From a virus, in the IMG/VR virus record IMGVR_UViG_3300045988_027176, positions 1-41,559 of that record: a DNA stretch of 41,559 nucleotides, one strand, 5' to 3'. Both the position numbers and the translations under genes were made by a program. The notes beneath the pieces are model-generated. The model saw only the letters and a list, made by a program, of their open reading frames with translations. It ran no database searches and was not told the DNA's origin. Below are positions 1-41,559 of the stretch, piece after piece (position 1 is the first letter of the stretch; each line of letters begins with the position of its first letter).

Positions 1-55
1 CAGAAAACGGCGACATCTTTTTTGAACTTGTTTGGCTATAAAGAACCTTAACACC
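1..55. repeat. 55-bp terminal direct repeat, copy 1 (identical to 41505-41559)
   Basis: Read directly: cagaaaacggcgacatcttttttgaacttgtttggctataaagaaccttaacacc is present at both ends. It includes the last 41 nt and stop codon of the integrase ORF. Confidence 0.95.
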
Positions 56-79
56 TGTTATGGTATAATATAGCTAAAC

Positions 80-102
80 AGGGGATGCACTATGCATCCC
101 CT
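80..102. terminator. Perfect 10-bp stem hairpin at the convergent ends of int and the ArdC-like gene
   Basis: aggggatgca-cta-tgcatcccct. The loop is the stop codon of the 90-938 ORF. There is no long U run on either side, so terminator function is only suggested. Confidence 0.4.
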
Positions 103-938
103 AAAATATAGTTTACTGCTTTTTCAGCTTTGCCAGCGGCAGAGATTATCATAGTTGGATCATTTTTTAGAACTTGCATCCAACCTTGAAGATATGCAGC
201 GCTATTTCGGAAAGAAGCTCTTGTTTCTATCCCTACATAGGCAACAAGGTTTGCCGCGCCGAGCTCCGCTACAAGCTCTTCTTTGCTGTAGTCATCGCTT
301 CCAAAAGCCGCTGCGCCAGAACCGCAAGCAAAGCGATCAAGCCTTGTTTTATGCCCGGTAGAATGTGCCATCTCGTGAAAGGCTGTCGAGTAATACAATG
401 CATCATTAGGGAATTGTTCAATCTTCGGAATGACGATTGCATCACGTGACGGGCTGTAAAACGCTTCGTCGGACAGATTATCGCGGATCAGCTTTACGCC
501 CTCGCGCTCAACATAAGCGGTAATGATGTCCTCGGCCTCCGATACCGGGTTTGCGTGCTTTTGGAGTTCGGGAGGATATTTGATTTTGATATTCTCGCAA
601 TCTTCGACATTGAACACGGTGTAGTATCTAAGCATCGGTACGATCTTTTCTGTTGGCTCTCCGCTCTCGTCCGTCAAGCTCGTTGTCACCTGTTTCCAGA
701 AAACAACCGGGCGGCCTTTAGAGCCTTTCTTCAAATGGCCCTTTTCAGCTTTGATCTGATTCATCGTCACCCACTCGCCCGCGCAACCAAGAATTAACTG
801 GTTAAGCAGGCTGTACGGCTTGCCGGTGGTGTGGGAAACAGCACCAACGCCCGTCCAAGGCTTGTCCCACGGGATGACGCCCTTTTCCATTTCCTCAATC
901 AGGCGGTCAGTTATCAACGCGCAAATTTTCTTGTTCAT
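90..938 (-). CDS. ardC: ArdC-like antirestriction protein (N-terminal ssDNA-binding DUF1738-type domain plus C-terminal zincin metalloprotease)
   Basis: 282 aa. The N-terminus (LIEEMEKGVIPWDKPW...) is typical of the ArdC N domain. There is a C-terminal HExxH motif (FHEMAHSTGH). ATGA overlap with the upstream small ORF. Confidence 0.7.
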   Translation of the reverse strand: MNKKICALITDRLIEEMEKGVIPWDKPWTGVGAVSHTTGKPYSLLNQLILGCAGEWVTMNQIKAEKGHLKKGSKGRPVVFWKQVTTSLTDESGEPTEKIVPMLRYYTVFNVEDCENIKIKYPPELQKHANPVSEAEDIITAYVEREGVKLIRDNLSDEAFYSPSRDAIVIPKIEQFPNDALYYSTAFHEMAHSTGHKTRLDRFACGSGAAAFGSDDYSKEELVAELGAANLVAYVGIETRASFRNSAAYLQGWMQVLKNDPTMIISAAGKAEKAVNYILGDA

Positions 939-1084
939 ACAATCGCCTCCTCCGCCGTCTGGTAGATGAATTCATACTCGGCATTGGAAATGCTGTCGTC
1001 ATTCGCGGCAAAAGACACAATATACCGAAGCGTGTCAATGCTGTCAGCCGCTGCGATCAAATTGATGTACTCGCTTACGCACAT
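935..1084 (-). CDS. Hypothetical small protein (49 aa), translationally coupled to the ArdC-like gene
   Basis: My translation: MCVSEYINLIAAADSIDTLRYIVSFAANDDSISNAEYEFIYQTAEEAIV. RBS aaaggagaaaaaac lies before the ATG. Its stop overlaps the ardC ATG (ATGA). Too short for the ORF track. Confidence 0.5.
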   Translation of the reverse strand: MCVSEYINLIAAADSIDTLRYIVSFAANDDSISNAEYEFIYQTAEEAIV

Positions 1085-1124
1085 AGTTTTTTCTCCTTTA
1101 CATTTGCGCCTTGCCGTGTTAAGG

Positions 1125-1162
1125 TAGAAAAGGAAAGGGGCTTTGGCAAGGCTCTAAGCCCC
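1125..1162 (-). terminator. Terminator-like hairpin between the 38-aa ORF and the ArdC operon
   Basis: On the minus strand: GGGGCUU-12 nt-AAGCCCC followed by UUUCCUUUUCU. Confidence 0.4.
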
Positions 1163-1211
1163 ATCCTGTGGCTTTCGGTGAGCGGCTTTAGCTGGGGCGC
1201 TCACCGATTTT

Positions 1212-1328
1212 TTAATGCTTCTGCATGATACGCTTAACGCGCTCTCGCAGCTCTTCGAGCGAATCGCAAGTTTCGATCAGCTCAAGAATCGCTCTGAGCA
1301 ACGCTTCCGTGACGTTCACGTCAGGCAT
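1212..1328 (-). CDS. Hypothetical small protein (38 aa)
   Basis: My translation: MPDVNVTEALLRAILELIETCDSLEELRERVKRIMQKH. Strong RBS gaaaggaagtgagg. First ORF downstream of the promoter at 1378-1406. Confidence 0.5.
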   Translation of the reverse strand: MPDVNVTEALLRAILELIETCDSLEELRERVKRIMQKH

Positions 1329-1361
1329 GTCCTCACTTCCTTTCGTAAAAGGCTTTCGCCC

Positions 1362-1411
1362 TTGCCTTACAGTTGTAGTTATAAACTATATAGTTTAGAA
1401 TGTCAACTGTT
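1362..1411 (-). promoter_or_regulatory. Promoter/operator cassette copy 1 (-35 TTGACA 1401-1406, 17-nt spacer, -10 TATAAC 1378-1383)
   Basis: Minus strand reads aACAGTTGACAttctaaactatatagttTATAACtaCAACTGTaag. Inverted repeats ACAGTTG/CAACTGT bracket the promoter, and a perfect 14-bp palindrome AAACTATATAGTTT fills the spacer. 46 of 50 positions are identical to 27094-27143. AT-rich UP-like region upstream. Confidence 0.7.
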
Positions 1412-1486
1412 TAATTGAATTTTCTTGCAAAAATTTATAACATTTTCGACATGCTCAATGAAGCACGCGGTTGATTTTATAAAGCA

Positions 1487-1514
1487 AAGAGGAGGGCCTT
1501 TCAGCCCTCCTCTT
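1487..1514 (-). terminator. Rho-independent terminator after the RHH gene
   Basis: 11-bp perfect stem aagaggagggc/gccctcctctt. On the minus strand it is followed by UUGCUUUAUAAAAU. The stop codon lies in the loop. Confidence 0.6.
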
Positions 1515-1641
1515 TTAATGCCTTGATGATTATGTTTTCGATGTAATTTGTCAGTGTCCGGTTCTCCGCATCGGCGGCTTTTTGCAACTTTTCTTTCATC
1601 TCCGGTGTGAGGCGGAGATTGACGCGCTCTGTCTTTGCCAT
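1501..1641 (-). CDS. Ribbon-helix-helix (CopG/Arc-like) DNA-binding protein, 46 aa
   Basis: My translation: MAKTERVNLRLTPEMKEKLQKAADAENRTLTNYIENIIIKALKEEG. The strand-helix-helix pattern (RVNLRLTPE... then NYIENII) is classic RHH. Its start overlaps the upstream stop (TAATG). Confidence 0.7.
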   Translation of the reverse strand: MAKTERVNLRLTPEMKEKLQKAADAENRTLTNYIENIIIKALKEEG

Positions 1642-1973
1642 TATTTTGCCTCTGAACTGTCGAAGCAACCCTCGGTAGACCCGGCGCAGCCATAGGCTTT
1701 CCAGTCAATCGGGAGGTCTTCGTCAGCAATGCTCTGGTCGAGGTCTTCGCGATCCACGCGGAAGACCCAGATGTGCCGCTGCTTGCGCTCGCGCTCTGTG
1801 AGGTAGTGCCACTGCTCGCGGGCGTCGTCGTTCGCCTCTTCCAGAGTGCGGAAAGCCTTTTCAAATACGTCCGGGTGCCCGCCCGCGCCGTAGATCGGTT
1901 CATCCTGAACAAGGTAAACGTGGTCAAGCTCTGCCCAATCGTGGGCGTTCTCTTTCGTGAACTCGTTTTTCAT
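1641..1973 (-). CDS. Hypothetical acidic protein, 110 aa (start MKNEFTK)
   Basis: RBS aaaggaaaaacaacc before the ATG at 1973. By my count 27 D/E against 13 K/R. It has its own consensus promoter, and an RHH gene follows immediately. Confidence 0.6.
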   Translation of the reverse strand: MKNEFTKENAHDWAELDHVYLVQDEPIYGAGGHPDVFEKAFRTLEEANDDAREQWHYLTERERKQRHIWVFRVDREDLDQSIADEDLPIDWKAYGCAGSTEGCFDSSEAK

Positions 1974-2021
1974 GGTTGTTTTTCCTTTCTTCGGGCGTTC
2001 ATCTCTTGCCCTTATGGTTGC

Positions 2022-2050
2022 ATTGTAAACCAATGTACATACAGTGTCAA
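2022..2050 (-). promoter_or_regulatory. Consensus sigma-70-type promoter (TTGACA-17-TACAAT) for the acidic-protein/RHH operon
   Basis: Minus strand: TTGACActgtatgtacattggttTACAAT. The spacer contains the palindrome ATGTACAT. Confidence 0.65.
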
Positions 2051-2071
2051 CAAAAATTTGAAGAACTGAAA

Positions 2072-2098
2072 GAAGCGCCAGAAATTCCCCGGCGCTTC
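2072..2098 (-). terminator. Terminator closing the post-lysis cassette
   Basis: 8-bp stem gaagcgcc/ggcgcttc. On the minus strand it is followed by UUUCAGUUCUUC. Confidence 0.5.
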
Positions 2099-2117
2099 CT
2101 GCTAATTGAAAAAAATG

Positions 2118-2672
2118 TCATTCGACGATACACTCGTAATACCGCACGAGCTTATCTTCGTCCGCGTCCTTATCGCAAAGAAACGCTTCGGCAAGGTCTG
2201 CGTAGAACTCCGTGTTGTTGACGTTGAATTTCTTTGCCACCTTGAAGTAGTCCGAGTACAGCATGTTCATGGCGACATAGAACTCCATCGGATCACAGTC
2301 TATTTTCTTCTGTTCAAGAAGATTCTTGGTCTGGTCATAGCTCCAATGCGCGCCCCTGCTGCCGTCCTCATTCTCAAGGCCACGCATCCACTCGTCCGCC
2401 ATTTCGCGGGTCATGCGGTCGTACACTCCGGCATAGCCGCGGTCGTACTCGCCGCCGTAGCTCTCTCCCATACGAGGCTCGTAGGAGAATCCGATTCGTC
2501 GGCGGTCGTCGTAGTAGTCCGTGTATTCGTCGCGGTATTCGTTGCGCGGGGCATAGCGCCCGTTGTTGTAATGCTCGCGGCCTCGGCTGTCGCGGTATCT
2601 GTCCTGCGGCTCGTAGTCACGGTTATTCTGTGTCTGGTAGTCTCGGATGCGTCTGATTCTGTCCGCTCTCAT
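2118..2672 (-). CDS. Hypothetical protein with an R/D/Y-rich low-complexity N-terminal half and a globular C-terminal domain
   Basis: 184 aa. The first ~90 aa are dominated by R, D, Y, E and N (RDYQTQNNRDYEPQDRYRDSRGREHYNNGRYAPRNEYRDEYTDYYDDRRR). ATGA overlap with the upstream gene. Confidence 0.6.
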   Translation of the reverse strand: MRADRIRRIRDYQTQNNRDYEPQDRYRDSRGREHYNNGRYAPRNEYRDEYTDYYDDRRRIGFSYEPRMGESYGGEYDRGYAGVYDRMTREMADEWMRGLENEDGSRGAHWSYDQTKNLLEQKKIDCDPMEFYVAMNMLYSDYFKVAKKFNVNNTEFYADLAEAFLCDKDADEDKLVRYYECIVE

Positions 2673-3058
2673 GTCGCTGCTCCTGTCTCCGCGTTAATAG
2701 CGGTAAGATCATTGCTCGGCGAGCAGCACGGCTTCCCGATCATTCGGAACGTGCCGCCCGTGGCGTTGGTGACTACAATCGTGCTGTACTTCGTCCGCGT
2801 CCGCACACCACATGCAGTTACGGGAGCGCAACAACGATTCGTCAGCGGGAACTGCGCCGTTCCCGCGCCGATGGTAAACACGACAGGCGCGTTAATCGTC
2901 GCCGTCGTTGGGATGCTCTGCGCCAGAACGATACAGTATTTTTCACCGTTGGAGTAGTTGCCATCTGGAAGATTGACAACCAGATTCCCGCCGGTAAACG
3001 TGATCGACTGGCTAAGGATCAGCCTTTTGCAAAGCTGACATACAGGTTTGCAAGCCAT
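2669..3058 (-). CDS. Hypothetical Cys-rich protein, 129 aa
   Basis: RBS aaaggagttaaaa. Cysteine clusters at both ends (MACKPVCQLCK..., ...RCCAPVTACG..., ...GKPCCSPS). No family recognised. Confidence 0.6.
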   Translation of the reverse strand: MACKPVCQLCKRLILSQSITFTGGNLVVNLPDGNYSNGEKYCIVLAQSIPTTATINAPVVFTIGAGTAQFPLTNRCCAPVTACGVRTRTKYSTIVVTNATGGTFRMIGKPCCSPSNDLTAINAETGAAT

Positions 3059-3103
3059 TTTTAACTCCTTTCAGGGGCGGGATGTCCCGCCCCGATCACA
3101 TTT

Positions 3104-3814
3104 TCAGCACCCGCAACAGGTGTTCTGGTTGCAGCAGTAAGGGTTCTGCACCTGATACGCGGGAACGGGGGACGGGCGCAGCGCGTTAATGAGCGTCGCG
3201 TTCTGGGCGCTCTGGGACGCGGCCAGACGCAGCGCCTGATTATCCGCTTCAAGGCTCTGAATCTTGCTCTGCGTGAGGAAATCGAGGATAGCGCGGGTTC
3301 CGGCGTTCTGGTTGTCCGTGATGTCACGGGCAACATTCTGGATGGTGTTCCGGGTATCGCACGCCTGCGTCGCCATGTCATAGCGAACCTGTGCGATAGC
3401 CTGCCGATTCTCGCAGCAGCAGTTCTGGTTCTGCATCTGCATGGCGTTGAGCTGCTGCATGAGCGCCGCCTGCTGATTGCATCGGGCAAGCTCCGCCGCA
3501 GAGAATCCGCTCGTCACGGCCTGCGTCACACCAGCAAAGCCGTTAAGCATTCCGGTATTCATCGCGTAGAAGCCGTCACAAACGCCATTGTTCACCGCGT
3601 CGATCTTGCGCTCAATGTTCGCAAAGTCGGAGGTGAGAACATAGCCATCAACTACACCGCCGGAATTGCCGCTGCCAAAGCCGTAGCCGCCGTTCCCCCA
3701 GCCGAAAATCAGCGCAAAGATGATGATTGCCCACCAACCGTCGCCGCCGAAAAGACCGCTTCGGTTATTGTCGCCCTGTCCGGCAAGGAAGCCGTTCATA
3801 AAATCGTCTGCCAT
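3104..3814 (-). CDS. Hypothetical membrane protein: Gly-rich TM N-terminus, long Q/N-rich helical region, C-terminal CCNQNTCCGC
   Basis: I place the start at MADDFMNG (ATG 3814, RBS taggag plus 9 nt) rather than the track start at 3868. TM segment WWAIIIFALIFGW, internal CCC, and a terminal Cys cluster. Confidence 0.6.
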   Translation of the reverse strand: MADDFMNGFLAGQGDNNRSGLFGGDGWWAIIIFALIFGWGNGGYGFGSGNSGGVVDGYVLTSDFANIERKIDAVNNGVCDGFYAMNTGMLNGFAGVTQAVTSGFSAAELARCNQQAALMQQLNAMQMQNQNCCCENRQAIAQVRYDMATQACDTRNTIQNVARDITDNQNAGTRAILDFLTQSKIQSLEADNQALRLAASQSAQNATLINALRPSPVPAYQVQNPYCCNQNTCCGC

Positions 3815-3822
3815 AGAAAAAA

Positions 3823-3911
3823 CTCCTATCAGTTTATTTACATCCGGGCGCGCGCCTCCCGGCTGCATTCGAGAAGCGGCTTTTTGTCAAGATGCCGTAA
3901 ACTGATAGGAG
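3823..3911 (-). promoter_or_regulatory. Structured intergenic RNA element: 14-bp perfect inverted repeat that pairs with the RBS of the 3104-3814 gene
   Basis: ctcctatcagttta (3823-3836) is the exact reverse complement of taaactgataggag (3898-3911). An inner GC hairpin (ccggg...cccgg) lies between them. In the mRNA the 3' arm contains the AGGAG Shine-Dalgarno and is followed by UUUUUUCU-AUG. Confidence 0.6.
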
Positions 3912-3916
3912 AGTGT

Positions 3917-4141
3917 TTATTTAAGCCCTAATCCTCGGGCGATTTCGTCCACAGTCGTTCCGCGTTCCTTCGCCATGTTCTCCGCCATCTGCCGGAGCTG
4001 GTCGGGCGTCTTTCCCTGTACCATCTGCAAAGCCTGTTGCGCCCGCGGATTGCGTCCAGCCATCTGCTGCATTAGCGTCATCGGGTTTCCGCCGGTACGG
4101 GCGAGGTTAATTAAATTGAAAATCGGATTATTCGTCATCAT
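3917..4141 (-). CDS. Hypothetical protein, 74 aa
   Basis: ORF overlapping the upstream gene by 14 nt. Q/M-rich helical sequence. No family recognised. Confidence 0.5.
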   Translation of the reverse strand: MMTNNPIFNLINLARTGGNPMTLMQQMAGRNPRAQQALQMVQGKTPDQLRQMAENMAKERGTTVDEIARGLGLK

Positions 4142-4481
4142 CTTCTACCCTCCGGCGCTTTTTGGCGGTCAGCTCCGCCCGTAGCGCGTCAAGGTCGGCT
4201 TTTGTGGCGTACTCTACCGCTGGGGCTTGTTCAGGCGTGAACAGTTTGAAATCAAAGAAATCCGATGCACCCGTCTGCTGGTTGAAGCGTTTCAGGTAGA
4301 TCATTCCGTGCCCAATGTCCGGCATGACGACACCGAGAGAAAAGTAGTCCGTGCTTGTGGCAATAGCCTCTTCGCGGCTCGTGACCGGCTTGCAGACGTA
4401 TCCGGGAGCAATCTGCTGCATGGGCTGCTGTCTCTGATATCCGCCGTAAAACTGCTGTGGCTGCTGGTAGTAGTTTTCCAT
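4128..4481 (-). CDS. Hypothetical protein with a Q/Y-rich N-terminus, 117 aa
   Basis: RBS gaaaggacgtgaagca. N-terminus MENYYQQPQQFYGGYQRQQPMQQ. First gene after the terminator at 4514-4547. Confidence 0.55.
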   Translation of the reverse strand: MENYYQQPQQFYGGYQRQQPMQQIAPGYVCKPVTSREEAIATSTDYFSLGVVMPDIGHGMIYLKRFNQQTGASDFFDFKLFTPEQAPAVEYATKADLDALRAELTAKKRRRVEDDDE

Positions 4482-18091: not shown

Positions 18092-18165
18092 TGGCAGCGC
18101 GAGTTGGGATTGAACCAACATCGACAGGATCAAAGCCTGTTGTGTTACCTTTGCACCATCGCGCT
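18092..18165 (-). tRNA. tRNA-Gln (anticodon UUG), 74 nt with encoded CCA
   Basis: Folded by hand. Acceptor AGCGCGA/TCGCGCT. Weak D arm GTG(C)/CAC. Anticodon stem ACAGG/CCTGT with loop CTTTGAT. Variable loop CGAT. T arm GTTGG-TTCAATC-CCAAC. Discriminator G, then CCA. Confidence 0.8.
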
Positions 18166-31905: not shown

Positions 31906-32336
31906 CCGAGCCTCCGCTTGGCGTAGAGTGCCATGAGTAAAGATTCCGCCATTCCGTCATGCTCCTTGCGGCAGCCCGGCGGAATCAAATTCACGCCGGG
32001 GAAAAGCCGCTTGCAGACCTCTATGGACGTGTTCTTGTCCGCCGTGACGGAAAATTCCTTCTTCCACTTCTGAGGGCGGACGAGCTCATACGGTATCTCG
32101 TATGCTTCCAGCATCCCTTGCAGCCACCCGAAGCCCTCGCCGAAGTGGAACATAGAGGTCACTCCCTGCCCCGGCATGGCGCTGACGTGCTCTAAGCAGC
32201 ACACCGCCTTTTCCCCGCGAAGATCGGATAGGCCGCAGCGGTAGGTGTCTCGGTCGTACCGGAACGTCTGGACTTCCTCACCCTGCAGAATGGCGAGGCC
32301 GCCGTTCTTGCCGGGGTCTATGCCGATGTAGATCAT
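31902..32336 (-). CDS. RuvC-like Holliday junction resolvase
   Basis: MIYIGIDPGKNGGLAIL is the catalytic-Asp opening motif of phage and Gram-positive RuvC-like resolvases. 144 aa. Confidence 0.7.
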   Translation of the reverse strand: MIYIGIDPGKNGGLAILQGEEVQTFRYDRDTYRCGLSDLRGEKAVCCLEHVSAMPGQGVTSMFHFGEGFGWLQGMLEAYEIPYELVRPQKWKKEFSVTADKNTSIEVCKRLFPGVNLIPPGCRKEHDGMAESLLMALYAKRRLG

Positions 32337-33424
32337 TCTTCCGCCTCTACGATCTCGCCGTTGCGGAGAGTGTAAAATACATCCGCCTTGATGATCTCAC
32401 CATCCACCTGGTACGACTTAACGCAGATGCAAGGGTATCCATCGCCGTCCCATTCGCCGTACTCGGCGAGAGTACACCATGTACCAACGGGAGCCTTGAT
32501 CTTCCCGCGCTTGCCGATAGCCGCCGCGACGCCGTGGACATTCTCGATCACAATTCTTGCGTCATCGCCGGAACTGCCGATCTGCGCGTATCTGCCGGAA
32601 CTGCCGATCTGCGCGTATCTGCCGGAACTGCCGATCTTCGCGTCATCGCCGGAACTGCCGATCTTCGCGTATCTGCCGGAACTGCCGATCTTCGCGTCAT
32701 CGCCGGAACTGCCGATCTGCGCGTATCTGCCGGAACTGCCGATCTTCGCGTCATCGCCGGAACTGCCGATCTGCGCGTATCTGCCGGAACTGCCGATCTG
32801 CGCGGCATCGCCGGAACTGCCGATCTGCGCGGCATCGCCGGAACTGCCGATCTGCGCGGAATCGCCGGAACTGCCGATCTTCGCGTCATCGCCGGAACTG
32901 CCGATCTGCGCGGCATAGCCGGAACTGCCGATCTTCGCGGCATCGCCGGAACTGCCGATCTTCGCGTATCTGCCGGAACTGCCGATCTGCGCGTATCTGC
33001 CGGAACTGCCGATCTGCGCGGCATCGCCGGAACTGCCGATCTGCGCGGCATCGGAAACGTCAACGTCCTCCGGCTTCGGCATTTTCTTAATCGTTTTCTC
33101 AAAAAGAAAATCAACGCACGCCTGAATAAAGCCGGAAAAGCCAAGCTTTGCGCCGATTTTAATCGTGCTGGTTGCGAATTTCTTGTCGTCATCCGTTACC
33201 GGAGGATAGATGGCTTCCACGGTTGTAAAGTCGCTGAACTGTCCGTCCGGTCGGACAAGCGGGTAATGGTCTAAAACGTCGAACGGATTAACACAGTAGT
33301 GTGTTACGCCCGGAACGCAGATGCCGTGACCGGATTTTTTGTAAACCGTGTTCTCTTCGTATTTGTGTCCACGGCAGATCAAGCCGGGTTCATAGGCTTT
33401 AAAGCCGTGCATATTATCGCTCAT
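32333..33424 (-). CDS. DUF7666-like protein with 18 tandem nonapeptide repeats
   Basis: The N-terminus FKAYEPGLICRGHKYEENTVY...GVTHYCVNPFDVLDHYP resembles, from memory, the DUF7666 family. The centre is 18 units of x-x-A-(Q/K)-I-G-S-S-G. Confidence 0.6.
   Translation of the reverse strand: MSDNMHGFKAYEPGLICRGHKYEENTVYKKSGHGICVPGVTHYCVNPFDVLDHYPLVRPDGQFSDFTTVEAIYPPVTDDDKKFATSTIKIGAKLGFSGFIQACVDFLFEKTIKKMPKPEDVDVSDAAQIGSSGDAAQIGSSGRYAQIGSSGRYAKIGSSGDAAKIGSSGYAAQIGSSGDDAKIGSSGDSAQIGSSGDAAQIGSSGDAAQIGSSGRYAQIGSSGDDAKIGSSGRYAQIGSSGDDAKIGSSGRYAKIGSSGDDAKIGSSGRYAQIGSSGRYAQIGSSGDDARIVIENVHGVAAAIGKRGKIKAPVGTWCTLAEYGEWDGDGYPCICVKSYQVDGEIIKADVFYTLRNGEIVEAEE
32567..33052. repeat. 27-bp tandem repeat x18 (coding)
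   Basis: The unit gccggaactgccgatct(g/t)cgcg plus a 5-nt variable tail (tatct, tcatc, gcatc, gaatc, gcata) repeats 18 times with an exact 27-nt period (32567 + 17 x 27 = 33026). Confidence 0.95.
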
Positions 33425-37869: not shown

Positions 37870-38190
37870 ATGGCGTTTTACCAACAGTTTATTAAGTTAT
37901 GTAATACCACCGGAATATCGCCATCCCGCGCAGCATTAAACGCCGGACTTTCTAAAACATCTGTAAATGGATGGAAAAGAGGGCAAACGCCAACCGACAA
38001 GAACATTGCGAAACTCGCAGAGGTGTTTAATGTTCCTGTTTCCTACTTTGACGAAAAAGAAGAAAAGCTCCCTGTCGATACCGACAAAGAGCTTTCCCCT
38101 AAGTATTCTGATTGGCAAATTTTAGCCGCCTACGAAAAGGCGGACGACAATGTTAAGGAAGCAATCCTGCTTCTTCTAAAATTAAGGTGA
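37870..38190 (+). CDS. CI-like XRE-family repressor
   Basis: 106 aa. ISPSRAALNAGLSKTSVNGWKRGQTPTDKNIAKLAEVFNVPVSYF is an XRE HTH with a C-terminal extension. Divergent from the Cro-like gene. Confidence 0.8.
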   Translation: MAFYQQFIKLCNTTGISPSRAALNAGLSKTSVNGWKRGQTPTDKNIAKLAEVFNVPVSYFDEKEEKLPVDTDKELSPKYSDWQILAAYEKADDNVKEAILLLLKLR

Positions 38191-39689: not shown

Positions 39690-40250
39690 GTGTCCGCGCT
39701 CACAGACCTACAACCTTACTTAGACGAGTATCCAGCCAAACTTCGCAAAGCGAAAAATGCCAGCGGCTTCACCCTGCAAGAGTTGTCAGACCTTTCAGGC
39801 GTTCCTTATAACAACGTATGCGACACAAATGCAGGGCGGGTCAAGCACCCGCTCCTTTTTTATGCCGCTGCCACTTGCAAGGTATTGAATCTATCGCTGA
39901 ATGAGCTTGTCGGTCTGGATGAACAGCCGGACACACAGCATGTCCATGATCTGGAATTAGAGAACGTGCGGTTATCCGGCGAAGTAAAGCATCTGCAAGA
40001 AATGAACGCAGGGCTGAGAAAGCAGGGGGAAACCCACACAAGGACAATTTATATGCTTATAGGCGTATGCAGTATTCTTTTGTGCGCCGTTGTATGGTAC
40101 GTCATATTTGACATCAAGGTAGAGACCGCCGGTATTTTCCGCTCGGCTGGGACAAGCATTTTTGCGGGCGTCCTCGCCCTGATACTGAACGCCTCCGTCG
40201 CAACCATCATTTACGCCTTCAAAAGCATTTACAAGGGGAAAAAGAAATGA
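39690..40250 (+). CDS. Membrane-anchored XRE-family HTH protein
   Basis: I place the start at GTG 39690 (RBS ggagatggag). HTH FTLQELSDLSGVPYNNVCDTNAG, a coiled-coil-like segment, and two C-terminal TM helices (IYMLIGVCSILLCAVVWYVIF and IFAGVLALILNASVATIIYAF). ATGA overlap with the integrase start. Confidence 0.6.
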   Translation: MSALTDLQPYLDEYPAKLRKAKNASGFTLQELSDLSGVPYNNVCDTNAGRVKHPLLFYAAATCKVLNLSLNELVGLDEQPDTQHVHDLELENVRLSGEVKHLQEMNAGLRKQGETHTRTIYMLIGVCSILLCAVVWYVIFDIKVETAGIFRSAGTSIFAGVLALILNASVATIIYAFKSIYKGKKK

Positions 40251-41545
40251 GAGTTGCACTTTATGTCCGCGTCTCCACGGAAGAACAAGCCGTTCACGGC
40301 CTTTCCGTCGATGACCAGAAGGACAGCCTGAAAAGATGGGCGGAGGAAAACAAGCACAAGGTCGTTGATTATTACGTCGATGCCGGGGTAAGCGGCAGGA
40401 AAAGCGTGTCAAAGCGCCCTGAATTGCAGCGGCTTCTGTCCGACGTGGAAGCGGGGAAAATCGATCTCGTAGCGTTCACAAAGCTCGACCGGTGGTTCCG
40501 AAACATCGGGGAATTTTATAAGGCGCAGGAAGTCCTCGACGCGCACGGCGTTGTCTGGCAAGCGACATACGAGGATTATGAGACCGCCACAGCCGCCGGA
40601 CGGTTAAAGGTCAATATAATGCTGTCCGTCGCGCAGGACGAGGCAGACAGAACGTCAGAGCGTGTTAAACGGATCATGCAGCACAAGCGGGAGCTTGGCC
40701 TTTGCCCCGCGGGTAAAACGCCCATCGGGTTAAAGGCCGTCGAGAGCCGCCTTTGCATCGATGAGGAAACGGCGCACATTGCTAGGCGAATGTTTGAAGA
40801 TTACATCGCAACGGGAAGCGTTAACCACGTCAAAAAGATGCTCGTTTCCGAATTTGGAATAATGCGAGCGAATCATCATATAAAAGGCGCATTGAGCAAC
40901 GAGAGATATATCGGCCTTAACAACGGAATAAAAGTCTGCGACGCGCTGATCCCGCCGGAGGATTTTGCCCTTGTACAACGGATGCTGACGGCAAGAAGCA
41001 TTCGCAACAACGGATCAAAGCATACTTGGCTTTTCTCCGGCCTTGTCTGGTGCGCCGAATGCGGCCATCGTCTTGTGACGCATTCAACACGGCAACGTGG
41101 GACAGACTACTTCTATTACCGCTGCAAAAACTATGAAATTGGCATCTGCCGCCACAAAAAGAGAATCAACGAGGCGACGCTTGAAAAATATCTGCTTGCC
41201 AAGCTGCCAATCGAGGTACAGGCGCACAATGCAAAGCTCAAAGCAGGAAAAACAAAGCCGCCGGTTGATACGGCGGCGATCAAGCGGAAAATGGACAAAC
41301 TGACAGACCTTTACCTCGCTGATCTCATAAGCCGCGAGAAATACGAAATAGAATACACAGCATTAAAAGAAAAACTGAACGTACCGCCAGAGCCGAAGCC
41401 TATCAACGAAGAACTTGTCATGTCTCTATTGGACGCATATGACAAACTTCCGCCACGTGGAAAAAAGGAAGTGTGGAATCGCTTCATTCGCCGGATTGTA
41501 GTTTCAGAAAACGGCGACATCTTTTTTGAACTTGTTTGGCTATAA
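40247..41545 (+). CDS. int: Large serine recombinase (integrase)
   Basis: 432 aa. The N-terminal resolvase domain opens MRVALYVRVSTEEQ (catalytic Ser). Then a recombinase domain, a zinc ribbon CAECGH...YYRCKNYEIGICRH, and a C-terminal coiled coil. Confidence 0.93.
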   Translation: MRVALYVRVSTEEQAVHGLSVDDQKDSLKRWAEENKHKVVDYYVDAGVSGRKSVSKRPELQRLLSDVEAGKIDLVAFTKLDRWFRNIGEFYKAQEVLDAHGVVWQATYEDYETATAAGRLKVNIMLSVAQDEADRTSERVKRIMQHKRELGLCPAGKTPIGLKAVESRLCIDEETAHIARRMFEDYIATGSVNHVKKMLVSEFGIMRANHHIKGALSNERYIGLNNGIKVCDALIPPEDFALVQRMLTARSIRNNGSKHTWLFSGLVWCAECGHRLVTHSTRQRGTDYFYYRCKNYEIGICRHKKRINEATLEKYLLAKLPIEVQAHNAKLKAGKTKPPVDTAAIKRKMDKLTDLYLADLISREKYEIEYTALKEKLNVPPEPKPINEELVMSLLDAYDKLPPRGKKEVWNRFIRRIVVSENGDIFFELVWL

Positions 41546-41559
41546 AGAACCTTAACACC
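41505..41559. repeat. 55-bp terminal direct repeat, copy 2
   Basis: Identical to bases 1-55. Confidence 0.95.

Follow-up and report, generated by a model that had tools for sequence, protein, structure and literature searches.

An exchangeable, probably self-repressed accessory cassette encoding a small acidic protein in a temperate phage of gut Oscillospiraceae

We describe a compact minus-strand unit near one end of a 41,559-nt viral DNA stretch, IMG/VR record IMGVR_UViG_3300045988_027176 (the whole stretch is called the window below), in which a promoter precedes the gene of a strongly acidic 110-aa protein (p110), the overlapping gene of a 46-aa ribbon-helix-helix (RHH) protein and a terminator hairpin. 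Our analysis suggests that this unit forms an autonomous accessory cassette, or “moron”, that represses itself, and that p110 is most likely an inhibitor with host defence as its probable target; as a whole, we hold this reading tentatively, a little short of an even chance. The cassette occupies a variable hot spot in a temperate Oscillospiraceae phage, with the last late gene on one side and the attachment site on the other, and it moves as a unit: it is present, absent or inverted among near-identical phages.

In the mechanism that we propose, the host RNA polymerase would fire the near-consensus promoter as soon as the DNA enters the cell, with no phage factor required; a single mRNA would yield p110 and the RHH protein by coupled translation, and the transcript would end at the 1486-1515 hairpin. 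RHH dimers would then bind a 12-bp palindrome between the −35 and −10 elements and shut the promoter, so that expression would peak briefly and then settle at a low, constant level, in the lysogen as well. The acidic p110 would act as an inhibitor that binds a host protein or a nucleic-acid-binding machine, and its most probable target would be a host defence system, as in anti-CRISPR (Acr)/Aca operons.

The cassette and its exchange at the hot spot

The p110 and RHH genes are directly adjacent with one shared base, a single promoter and a single terminator enclose them both, and the start of the RHH gene is translationally coupled to the p110 stop through the TAATG overlap (Table 1). An initial annotation, made from the sequence alone, had placed the promoter, both genes, the overlap and the terminator on the minus strand, and our reanalysis confirmed every one of these elements and its position. 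Promoter with spacer, both genes, overlap and terminator are kept in more than 40 independent metagenomic contigs; therefore, the arrangement is more than chance. The cassette promoter is the best-scoring site in positions 1-3200, where a scan returned seven promoter-like sites against 2.2 expected from shuffled sequences, and its −35 element, spacer and −10 element are kept across 13 sequence variants (46 loci with the promoter), with divergent sequence outside.

The promoter spacer carries an operator-like palindrome. The initial annotation had pointed to ATGTACAT (2040-2033) within the spacer; this palindrome is real and operator-like, but it is only part of a 12-bp element, as comparison of the 46 related loci defines the first 12 spacer bases, YTGTAYGYACAW (2044-2033), as the unit. 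In 17 of the 46 loci its two halves are perfectly palindromic (ATGTACGTACAT or TTGTACGTACAA), and the element is probably the operator of the RHH protein. A search for a second good copy across the 41.5-kb window found none, the remaining matches being at chance level, and no copy was found at the promoter of the neighbouring ArdC module; as the phage holds no other good copy of the motif, the RHH protein looks like a local regulator.

Stronger support comes from cassettes with other DNA-binding genes. A cassette with a helix-turn-helix (HTH) gene (L033) carries the spacer palindrome CACCA-GTT-TGGTG; a cassette with a longer RHH homologue (L035) carries TTGTATAGCA-TT-TGCTATACAA; and at another site in a related phage (L026), where the gene after a p110 relative encodes an unrelated RHH protein of 61 aa, the spacer palindrome is ATGGGTA-T-TACCCAT. 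All these cassettes have the palindrome inside a 17-nt spacer and a promoter with the consensus −35 element TTGACA, and the palindrome changes with each different DNA-binding gene while keeping its position. Of all the evidence, this co-variation of palindrome and regulator argues best for a DNA-binding protein that shuts its own promoter by sitting between the hexamers, and we consider binding and repression by the RHH protein likely.

The RHH protein is indeed little more than a DNA-binding fold, as first proposed: the strand-helix-helix fold extends over the full 46 aa, as judged from the coverage of the Pfam models Arc (positions 1-46 of 50; 22.6 bits against a cut-off of 20.4) and RHH_5 (2-42 of 43). 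RHH_1 also matched, and TacA1 (9e-7; 29 bits against a cut-off of 21) matched over profile positions 1-32 of 80, i.e. its RHH part only. PHROGs classifies the protein as an Arc-like repressor; its nearest PDB sequences are HP0222, the N-terminal RHH part of KacA (5zgn) and Arc (1b28/1myl), with residues 1-46 aligning to Arc 4-49; and databases label it DUF1778. The matches in Pfam and PDB were to generic RHH or antitoxin families only, and no Acr-dedicated library was among those searched. The protein is 46-47 aa long in all 120 clusters listed, and the index of the sequence collection lists one form of it in 585 blocks. The 46-aa form was found only with p110 upstream, a gene of 107-111 aa overlapping its start in 10 of the 10 distinct contexts shown. 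Relatives in three loci (L004, L022 and L035) bear a C-terminal extension of ~55 aa and stand behind three different upstream proteins. The 46-aa protein is probably the autorepressor of the cassette.

To follow the cassette among close relatives, we compared the interval between the DUF7841 gene and the integrase gene in viral contigs with a DUF7841 gene 96-98% identical to that of the window (layouts A to F in Table 1). Layouts A and B have the segment 1481-2051 in common, from the −35 box through the terminator end; in layout B the cassette lies downstream of the integrase gene on the same strand. Compared with layout C (L041, L055 and L066), the window has 601 extra bases (1517-2117). Alternative cassettes occupy the same site or another site. 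Members of the RHH regulator family follow unrelated small genes, as with the homologues behind a 102-aa protein (L035) and a 168-aa protein (L022), the latter being related to the 90-aa protein of layout D. The small proteins of the alternative cassettes matched no known family, and no defence family in PADLOC matched any cassette protein. As near-identical phages swap cassettes of a small protein and a minimal DNA-binding protein with matching palindromes, the Acr/Aca-like layout proposed in the initial annotation appears well supported by the comparison of loci; fusions of the p110 domain to HTH domains, described below, point the same way.

The cassette terminator folds with −27.5 kcal/mol (z = −6.1), and none of 200 shuffled sequences folds as well; a simple terminator scan overlooked it, since its T run is taken up into the stem. 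The hairpin is flanked by an A run and, opposite, by a T run, and is therefore probably bidirectional. The same hairpin lies directly 3′ of the DUF7841 gene in cassette-free, inverted and alternative-cassette phages, and whatever the layout, this palindrome adjoins either the DNA-binding gene or DUF7841 at its 3′ end. The shared abutting hairpin therefore marks a fixed junction at which the cassette stands in either orientation, and it may serve as a recombination anchor for cassette swapping and flipping. Another hairpin (2072-2098), the terminator of the upstream DUF7841 gene, lies inside the 601 bp that are missing from cassette-free relatives and does not occur at the junction of layout C; it insulates the cassette from late transcription. 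An equivalent of the junction hairpin was also noted near 4558-4594 in L033, L035, L039 and L055.

The 5′ leader contains a short stem whose fold is weak in the window (−6.3 kcal/mol, z −1.5). Relatives (the leaders of L004, L022 and L033) retain the stem with altered letters (GGGG...CCCC) directly before GAAAGGAG, and it is retained even where the first gene of the cassette differs.

The acidic protein p110 and its possible role

Our recount agrees with the initial one in giving p110 27 aspartate or glutamate against 13 lysine or arginine residues, and its isoelectric point (pI) is 4.57. Acidity is a property of the whole family: the median pI is 4.35, the median net charge −13, and 96% of 89 members fall below pI 5. 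No family in Pfam, PHROGs, NCBIfam or PADLOC matched p110, sequence and profile searches against PDB gave no match, tblastn against GenBank phages and PLSDB plasmids gave none either, and no relative was found among GTDB species representatives. The close homologues fall into 13 clusters, every one of gut-metagenome origin; an exhaustive profile search extended the family to 175 representative clusters (50% identity) at E ≤ 1e-3, and a word-indexed search with an 89-sequence profile added little. One of the profile hits, the 3217-aa beta-helix protein P0159, was judged a spurious relative. Family members are mostly stand-alone proteins of ~90 aa, corresponding to an unannotated domain of ~90 aa with the core YxVIDE..GD.F..VF.TLEEAN..A...W.HLT..E.K.RHI.V..V...DL...A.DEDG.IDW......G.FDS.

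An AlphaFold model built on the 89-sequence alignment reached a predicted local distance difference test score (pLDDT) of 88 and a predicted template-modelling score (pTM) of 0.82; an earlier run with a seven-sequence alignment (pLDDT 43) was discarded. The elements of the model follow the order strand, strand, helix, helix, strand and an irregular, conserved C-terminal part. Foldseek retrieved nothing significant from 350,542 PDB chains (best E 0.66, template-modelling (TM) score < 0.4) and only uncharacterised family members from the viral library BFVD. The initial annotation had suggested looking in the predicted structure for a known Acr-, Ocr- or Ard-like fold, and the model resembles none.

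The p110 domain recurs in company with DNA-binding domains. It is fused to an N-terminal XRE-type HTH domain in family members P0015, P0018, P0053, P0137 and others, and the fused HTH is of the same “IPxRTxExWExG..P.YV” kind as the 58-aa HTH protein of cassette D; member P0143 contains an RHH-like stretch, and a 245-aa relative is followed by an overlapping, unrelated RHH gene. Many relatives, however, are solitary (L024, L027 and L029) or tandem and lack a DNA-binding gene in their vicinity. The 113-kb viral contig L029, for example, has two tandem p110-domain paralogues (3540-3836 and 4001-4264) and no DNA-binding gene adjoining them. The CI-like phage repressor and the proteins of the alternative cassettes, tested as distant relatives of p110, showed no likeness to it.

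Swapped effectors, regulator-matched operators, effector-regulator fusions and an ArdC-like gene at the same hot spot make up an Acr/Aca pattern, and it is on this pattern that we base the proposal that p110 is a counter-defence inhibitor, which we consider possible, somewhat on the doubtful side of even. Several points weigh against it. The design of a small protein, a repressor and a palindrome is also found in other accessory genes and in toxin-antitoxin pairs; an acidic composition by itself says little about DNA mimicry; nothing ties p110 to a particular target; and its fold resembles no known inhibitor, and it has no sequence or fold likeness to solved anti-CRISPR proteins, Ocr/ArdA-type mimics, sponges or other anti-defence proteins. 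Moreover, the solitary relatives indicate that the family is not generally controlled by a partner protein, and with the operator absent from the ArdC promoter there is no sign of co-regulation across the island.

It is also conceivable that p110 serves the lysogen: as a lysogenic-conversion or exclusion moron, expressed from the prophage at a low, self-limited level, it would act on a host process or on incoming phages or plasmids rather than on host defence, for example in superinfection exclusion or by inhibiting a host nuclease or polymerase unrelated to immunity. A position at the prophage end by the attachment site and an own promoter and terminator are the classic moron layout, the cassette is present or absent among otherwise identical phages, its inverted form follows the integrase gene on the same strand, and autorepression suits steady low expression in a lysogen; this explanation fits location and autoregulation equally well, and sequence cannot separate it from the counter-defence proposal. 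However, p110 has no membrane segment or other typical feature of exclusion proteins, the cassette proteins include no PADLOC defence family, and counter-defence agrees better with the ArdC neighbour and with the repressor-type HTH to which the domain is fused in some relatives; none of these points decides the matter. We regard a lysogenic-conversion or exclusion moron as unlikely, yet still a serious contender. The company of DNA-binding domains, both fused and adjacent, could instead mean that p110 is a partner, sensor or oligomerisation domain of a phage-internal regulator, which alone would act as an anti-repressor or a lysis-lysogeny co-regulator kept in check by the RHH protein, much like ant in phage P22 immI, which is under Arc/Mnt control; the end-to-end alignment with Arc and the operator inside the promoter spacer agree with this. 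Yet near-identical siblings lack the cassette or carry unrelated proteins in its place, and a cassette that is dispensable and swappable is unlikely to be a component of a core switch; p110 is unlike the CI-like repressor; many family members are solitary; and as the fusions have the order HTH then domain, whereas the operon has domain then RHH, the two genes did not simply arise by splitting a single regulator. A role within the phage's own regulation thus seems quite improbable.

The initial annotation had also noted a resemblance to a reversed toxin-antitoxin pair, i.e. a type II system with p110 as the toxin and the RHH protein as antitoxin and autorepressor, which would stabilise the prophage or mediate abortive infection. 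The RHH protein does match the RHH part of TacA/DUF1778 and other antitoxin models, the two genes overlap, and homologues in L004, L022 and L035 carry the C-terminal extension. But the 46-aa protein consists of the DNA-binding fold only and has no toxin-neutralising segment (TacA1 is covered over positions 1-32 of 80), no GNAT or other toxin gene lies nearby, and the extension cannot count as a cognate neutraliser, since the proteins encoded upstream of it are of three different kinds. In addition, p110 is strongly acidic, unlike typical RNase toxins, matches no toxin family or fold, and has relatives that stand alone, in tandem or fused to HTH domains. On these grounds we consider a toxin-antitoxin pair very improbable.

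Should p110 inhibit a bacterial defence, the known anti-defence proteins would gain a new family with a new fold; otherwise, the cassette would be an ordinary autoregulated moron. A broader proposal, that the p110 family is a new and widespread class of phage counter-defence proteins acting as nucleic-acid mimics or stoichiometric inhibitors of immunity in uncultured gut Clostridia, is more doubtful still; if it holds, hot-spot cassettes of effector, minimal repressor and matching operator would form a catalogue of further inhibitors. Candidates could be found by a simple rule: a palindrome in the spacer of a consensus promoter, a small protein, and then a minimal RHH or HTH gene. This phage group is very common in human gut metagenomes, and its Oscillospiraceae hosts are hardly tractable, with immune systems that are little studied; the sibling phages, with the cassette present, absent, inverted or replaced, provide natural controls.

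The phage, its host and the neighbouring genes

The window is the complete circular genome of a temperate phage of an uncultured gut Oscillospiraceae. Its first 55 nt (1-55) and last 55 nt (41505-41559) form an exact terminal direct repeat, which indicates a circular assembly and a complete phage genome of ~41.5 kb, and related loci read uninterrupted over the end-to-start junction. The minus strand carries the replication genes, and related loci have holin and lysin genes on the same strand. Integrated copies place host genes just past the cassette; the flanking host DNA in one case shows 97% identity to a gut genome labelled “Clostridiales UBA11467” and 72-85% identity to genomes of Oscillospiraceae/Faecousia, and NCBI assigns a near-identical RHH protein to Hominenteromicrobium sp. 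In tyrosine-integrase phages (L004, 4400-4490), the 3′ part of a tRNA gene (GGTTCAAATCCCGG...CCA) lies between the integrase gene and the cassette and is likely the attachment site. Other sibling phages have a serine integrase and are integrated beside thymidylate kinase or PfkB genes.

Table 1. Coordinates of the cassette, its surroundings and related cassettes (window positions unless a locus is named)
Feature	Position	Strand	Description
Sigma-70-type promoter of the cassette	−35 TTGACA 2050-2045; −10 TACAAT 2027-2022	minus	17-nt spacer; 11 of 12 consensus matches
Probable RHH operator	2033..2044		CTGTATGTACAT; first 12 nt of spacer; degenerate copy of the 12-bp palindrome TTGTAC-GTACAA
5′ untranslated region	1974..2021	minus	short GGGC/GCCC stem (2011-2008 with 1996-1993), then Shine-Dalgarno GGAAAGGAAA
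p110 gene	1641..1973	minus	110-aa acidic protein; ATG start, GGAAAGGAAA upstream
RHH gene	1501..1641	minus	46 aa; shares base 1641 with the TAA stop of p110 (TAATG)
Terminator hairpin of the cassette	1486..1515		perfect 12-bp arms, 1486-1497 and 1504-1515
Terminator hairpin of DUF7841 gene	2072..2098	minus	inverted repeat; −20.7 kcal/mol, z −4.7
DUF7841 gene	2672..2118	minus	last conserved late gene; cassette after it, near integrase end
Second promoter, ArdC module	1413-1385	minus	TTGACA, 17 nt, TATAAC; inside 42-bp near-palindrome 1369-1410
38-aa open reading frame (ORF)	1328..1212	minus	
49-aa ORF	1084..935	minus	
ArdC-like gene	938..90	minus	ArdcN and MPTase-PolyVal domains
CI-like HTH gene	37870-38190	plus	
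Large serine integrase gene	40247-41545	plus	
Layout A	window		p110, RHH, 38-aa ORF, 49-aa ORF, ArdC
Layout B			p110 and RHH only; opposite orientation, convergent with DUF7841; no ArdC
Layout C			38-aa ORF, 49-aa ORF, ArdC; no cassette, DUF7841 joined to hairpin
Layouts D, E	L033 4578-5019; L039 4578-5019		90-aa acidic protein, overlapping 58-aa HTH protein
Layout F	L035 4592-5202		unrelated 102-aa protein, then 99-aa RHH homologue with ~55-aa C-terminal extension
Three-gene cassette	L022 4995-6145		p110 homologue, 168-aa protein, RHH gene

The cargo of the hot spot includes a member of the ArdC-like anti-restriction family: the protein matches PF08401 (3e-24) and PF18818 (1.3e-34), the ArdC N-terminal and zincin metallopeptidase domains of Pfam, as well as PHROG 7245, anti-restriction protein (2.5e-70). 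The initial annotation had joined this gene with the cassette into one anti-defence island at 90-2050. The ArdC-like neighbour is real, but the module has its own promoter, which drives the 38-aa ORF, the 49-aa ORF and ArdC and lies in a 42-bp palindrome that differs from the RHH site, and each module occurs alone: ArdC without the cassette in five loci (L041, L053, L055, L063 and L066), the cassette without ArdC in more than 20. Own promoter and independent occurrence make the two neighbours at a hot spot rather than one operon; the ArdC module is a separate neighbour and not part of the cassette operon.

Some further genes were noted. Among the last late genes (2118-3868), the DUF7841 protein has an N-terminal half rich in R, Y and D, and the same region encodes a 129-aa Cys-rich protein and a 254-aa protein with the C-terminal sequence CCNQNTCCGC that belongs to PHROG 16490, to which PHROGs assigns no function. 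A tRNA-Gln gene lies at 18092-18165, and the protein encoded at 32333-33424 combines collagen triple-helix repeats with a DUF7666 domain.

Comparison with known systems

The kind of system to which the cassette belongs is known: it is an autoregulated accessory or anti-defence-type operon, a class that now includes RHH regulators. The p110 family, its predicted fold and the exchangeable set of cassettes are not described in any library searched. Aca proteins are usually DNA-binding HTH regulators that repress acr promoters via inverted repeats, and an RHH-type member, Aca14, described with a long helical extension, has been validated by electrophoretic mobility shift and reporter assays (PMC13551039). 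The cassette shares with Acr/Aca operons a strong constitutive promoter, one or more small, unrelated and often acidic proteins followed by the gene of a small DNA-binding repressor, and an inverted repeat that overlaps the core promoter, which for the cassette is predicted from its sequence; effectors that vary before the regulator and are sometimes fused to its DNA-binding domain, and a location in a prophage accessory region, are further common features. It differs in that no known Acr or Aca homologue was found for its proteins, that its operator occupies the spacer instead of covering the −10 box, and that there is no sign of its RHH protein controlling a neighbouring operon. From Aca14 (WP_005725436.1) the RHH protein is set apart, by description only, in that 46 aa leave no room for the extension.

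Like P22 Arc, the cassette regulator is a minimal RHH repressor of ~50 aa that is co-transcribed with the gene it limits and probably acts at a palindromic operator inside the promoter. In P22 immI, arc precedes ant, and a second RHH protein, Mnt, is involved; in the cassette, by contrast, the RHH gene comes second, no Ant homologue is present and the whole unit is dispensable. The TacA/DUF1778 (KacA) antitoxins of GNAT-toxin pairs have a similar N-terminal RHH; the cassette protein lacks their toxin-binding C-terminus (32 of 80 profile positions are covered), has no acetyltransferase toxin gene beside it and stands in reversed gene order. The closest general description is that of the moron, a concept said to stem from the comparison of HK97 and HK022 by Juhala et al. 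in 2000: as in morons, the cassette has its own promoter and terminator, lies between genes of a conserved module and is present or absent among close relatives, but it carries its own repressor and is one of an exchangeable set of cassettes that share the 5′ leader and the terminator.

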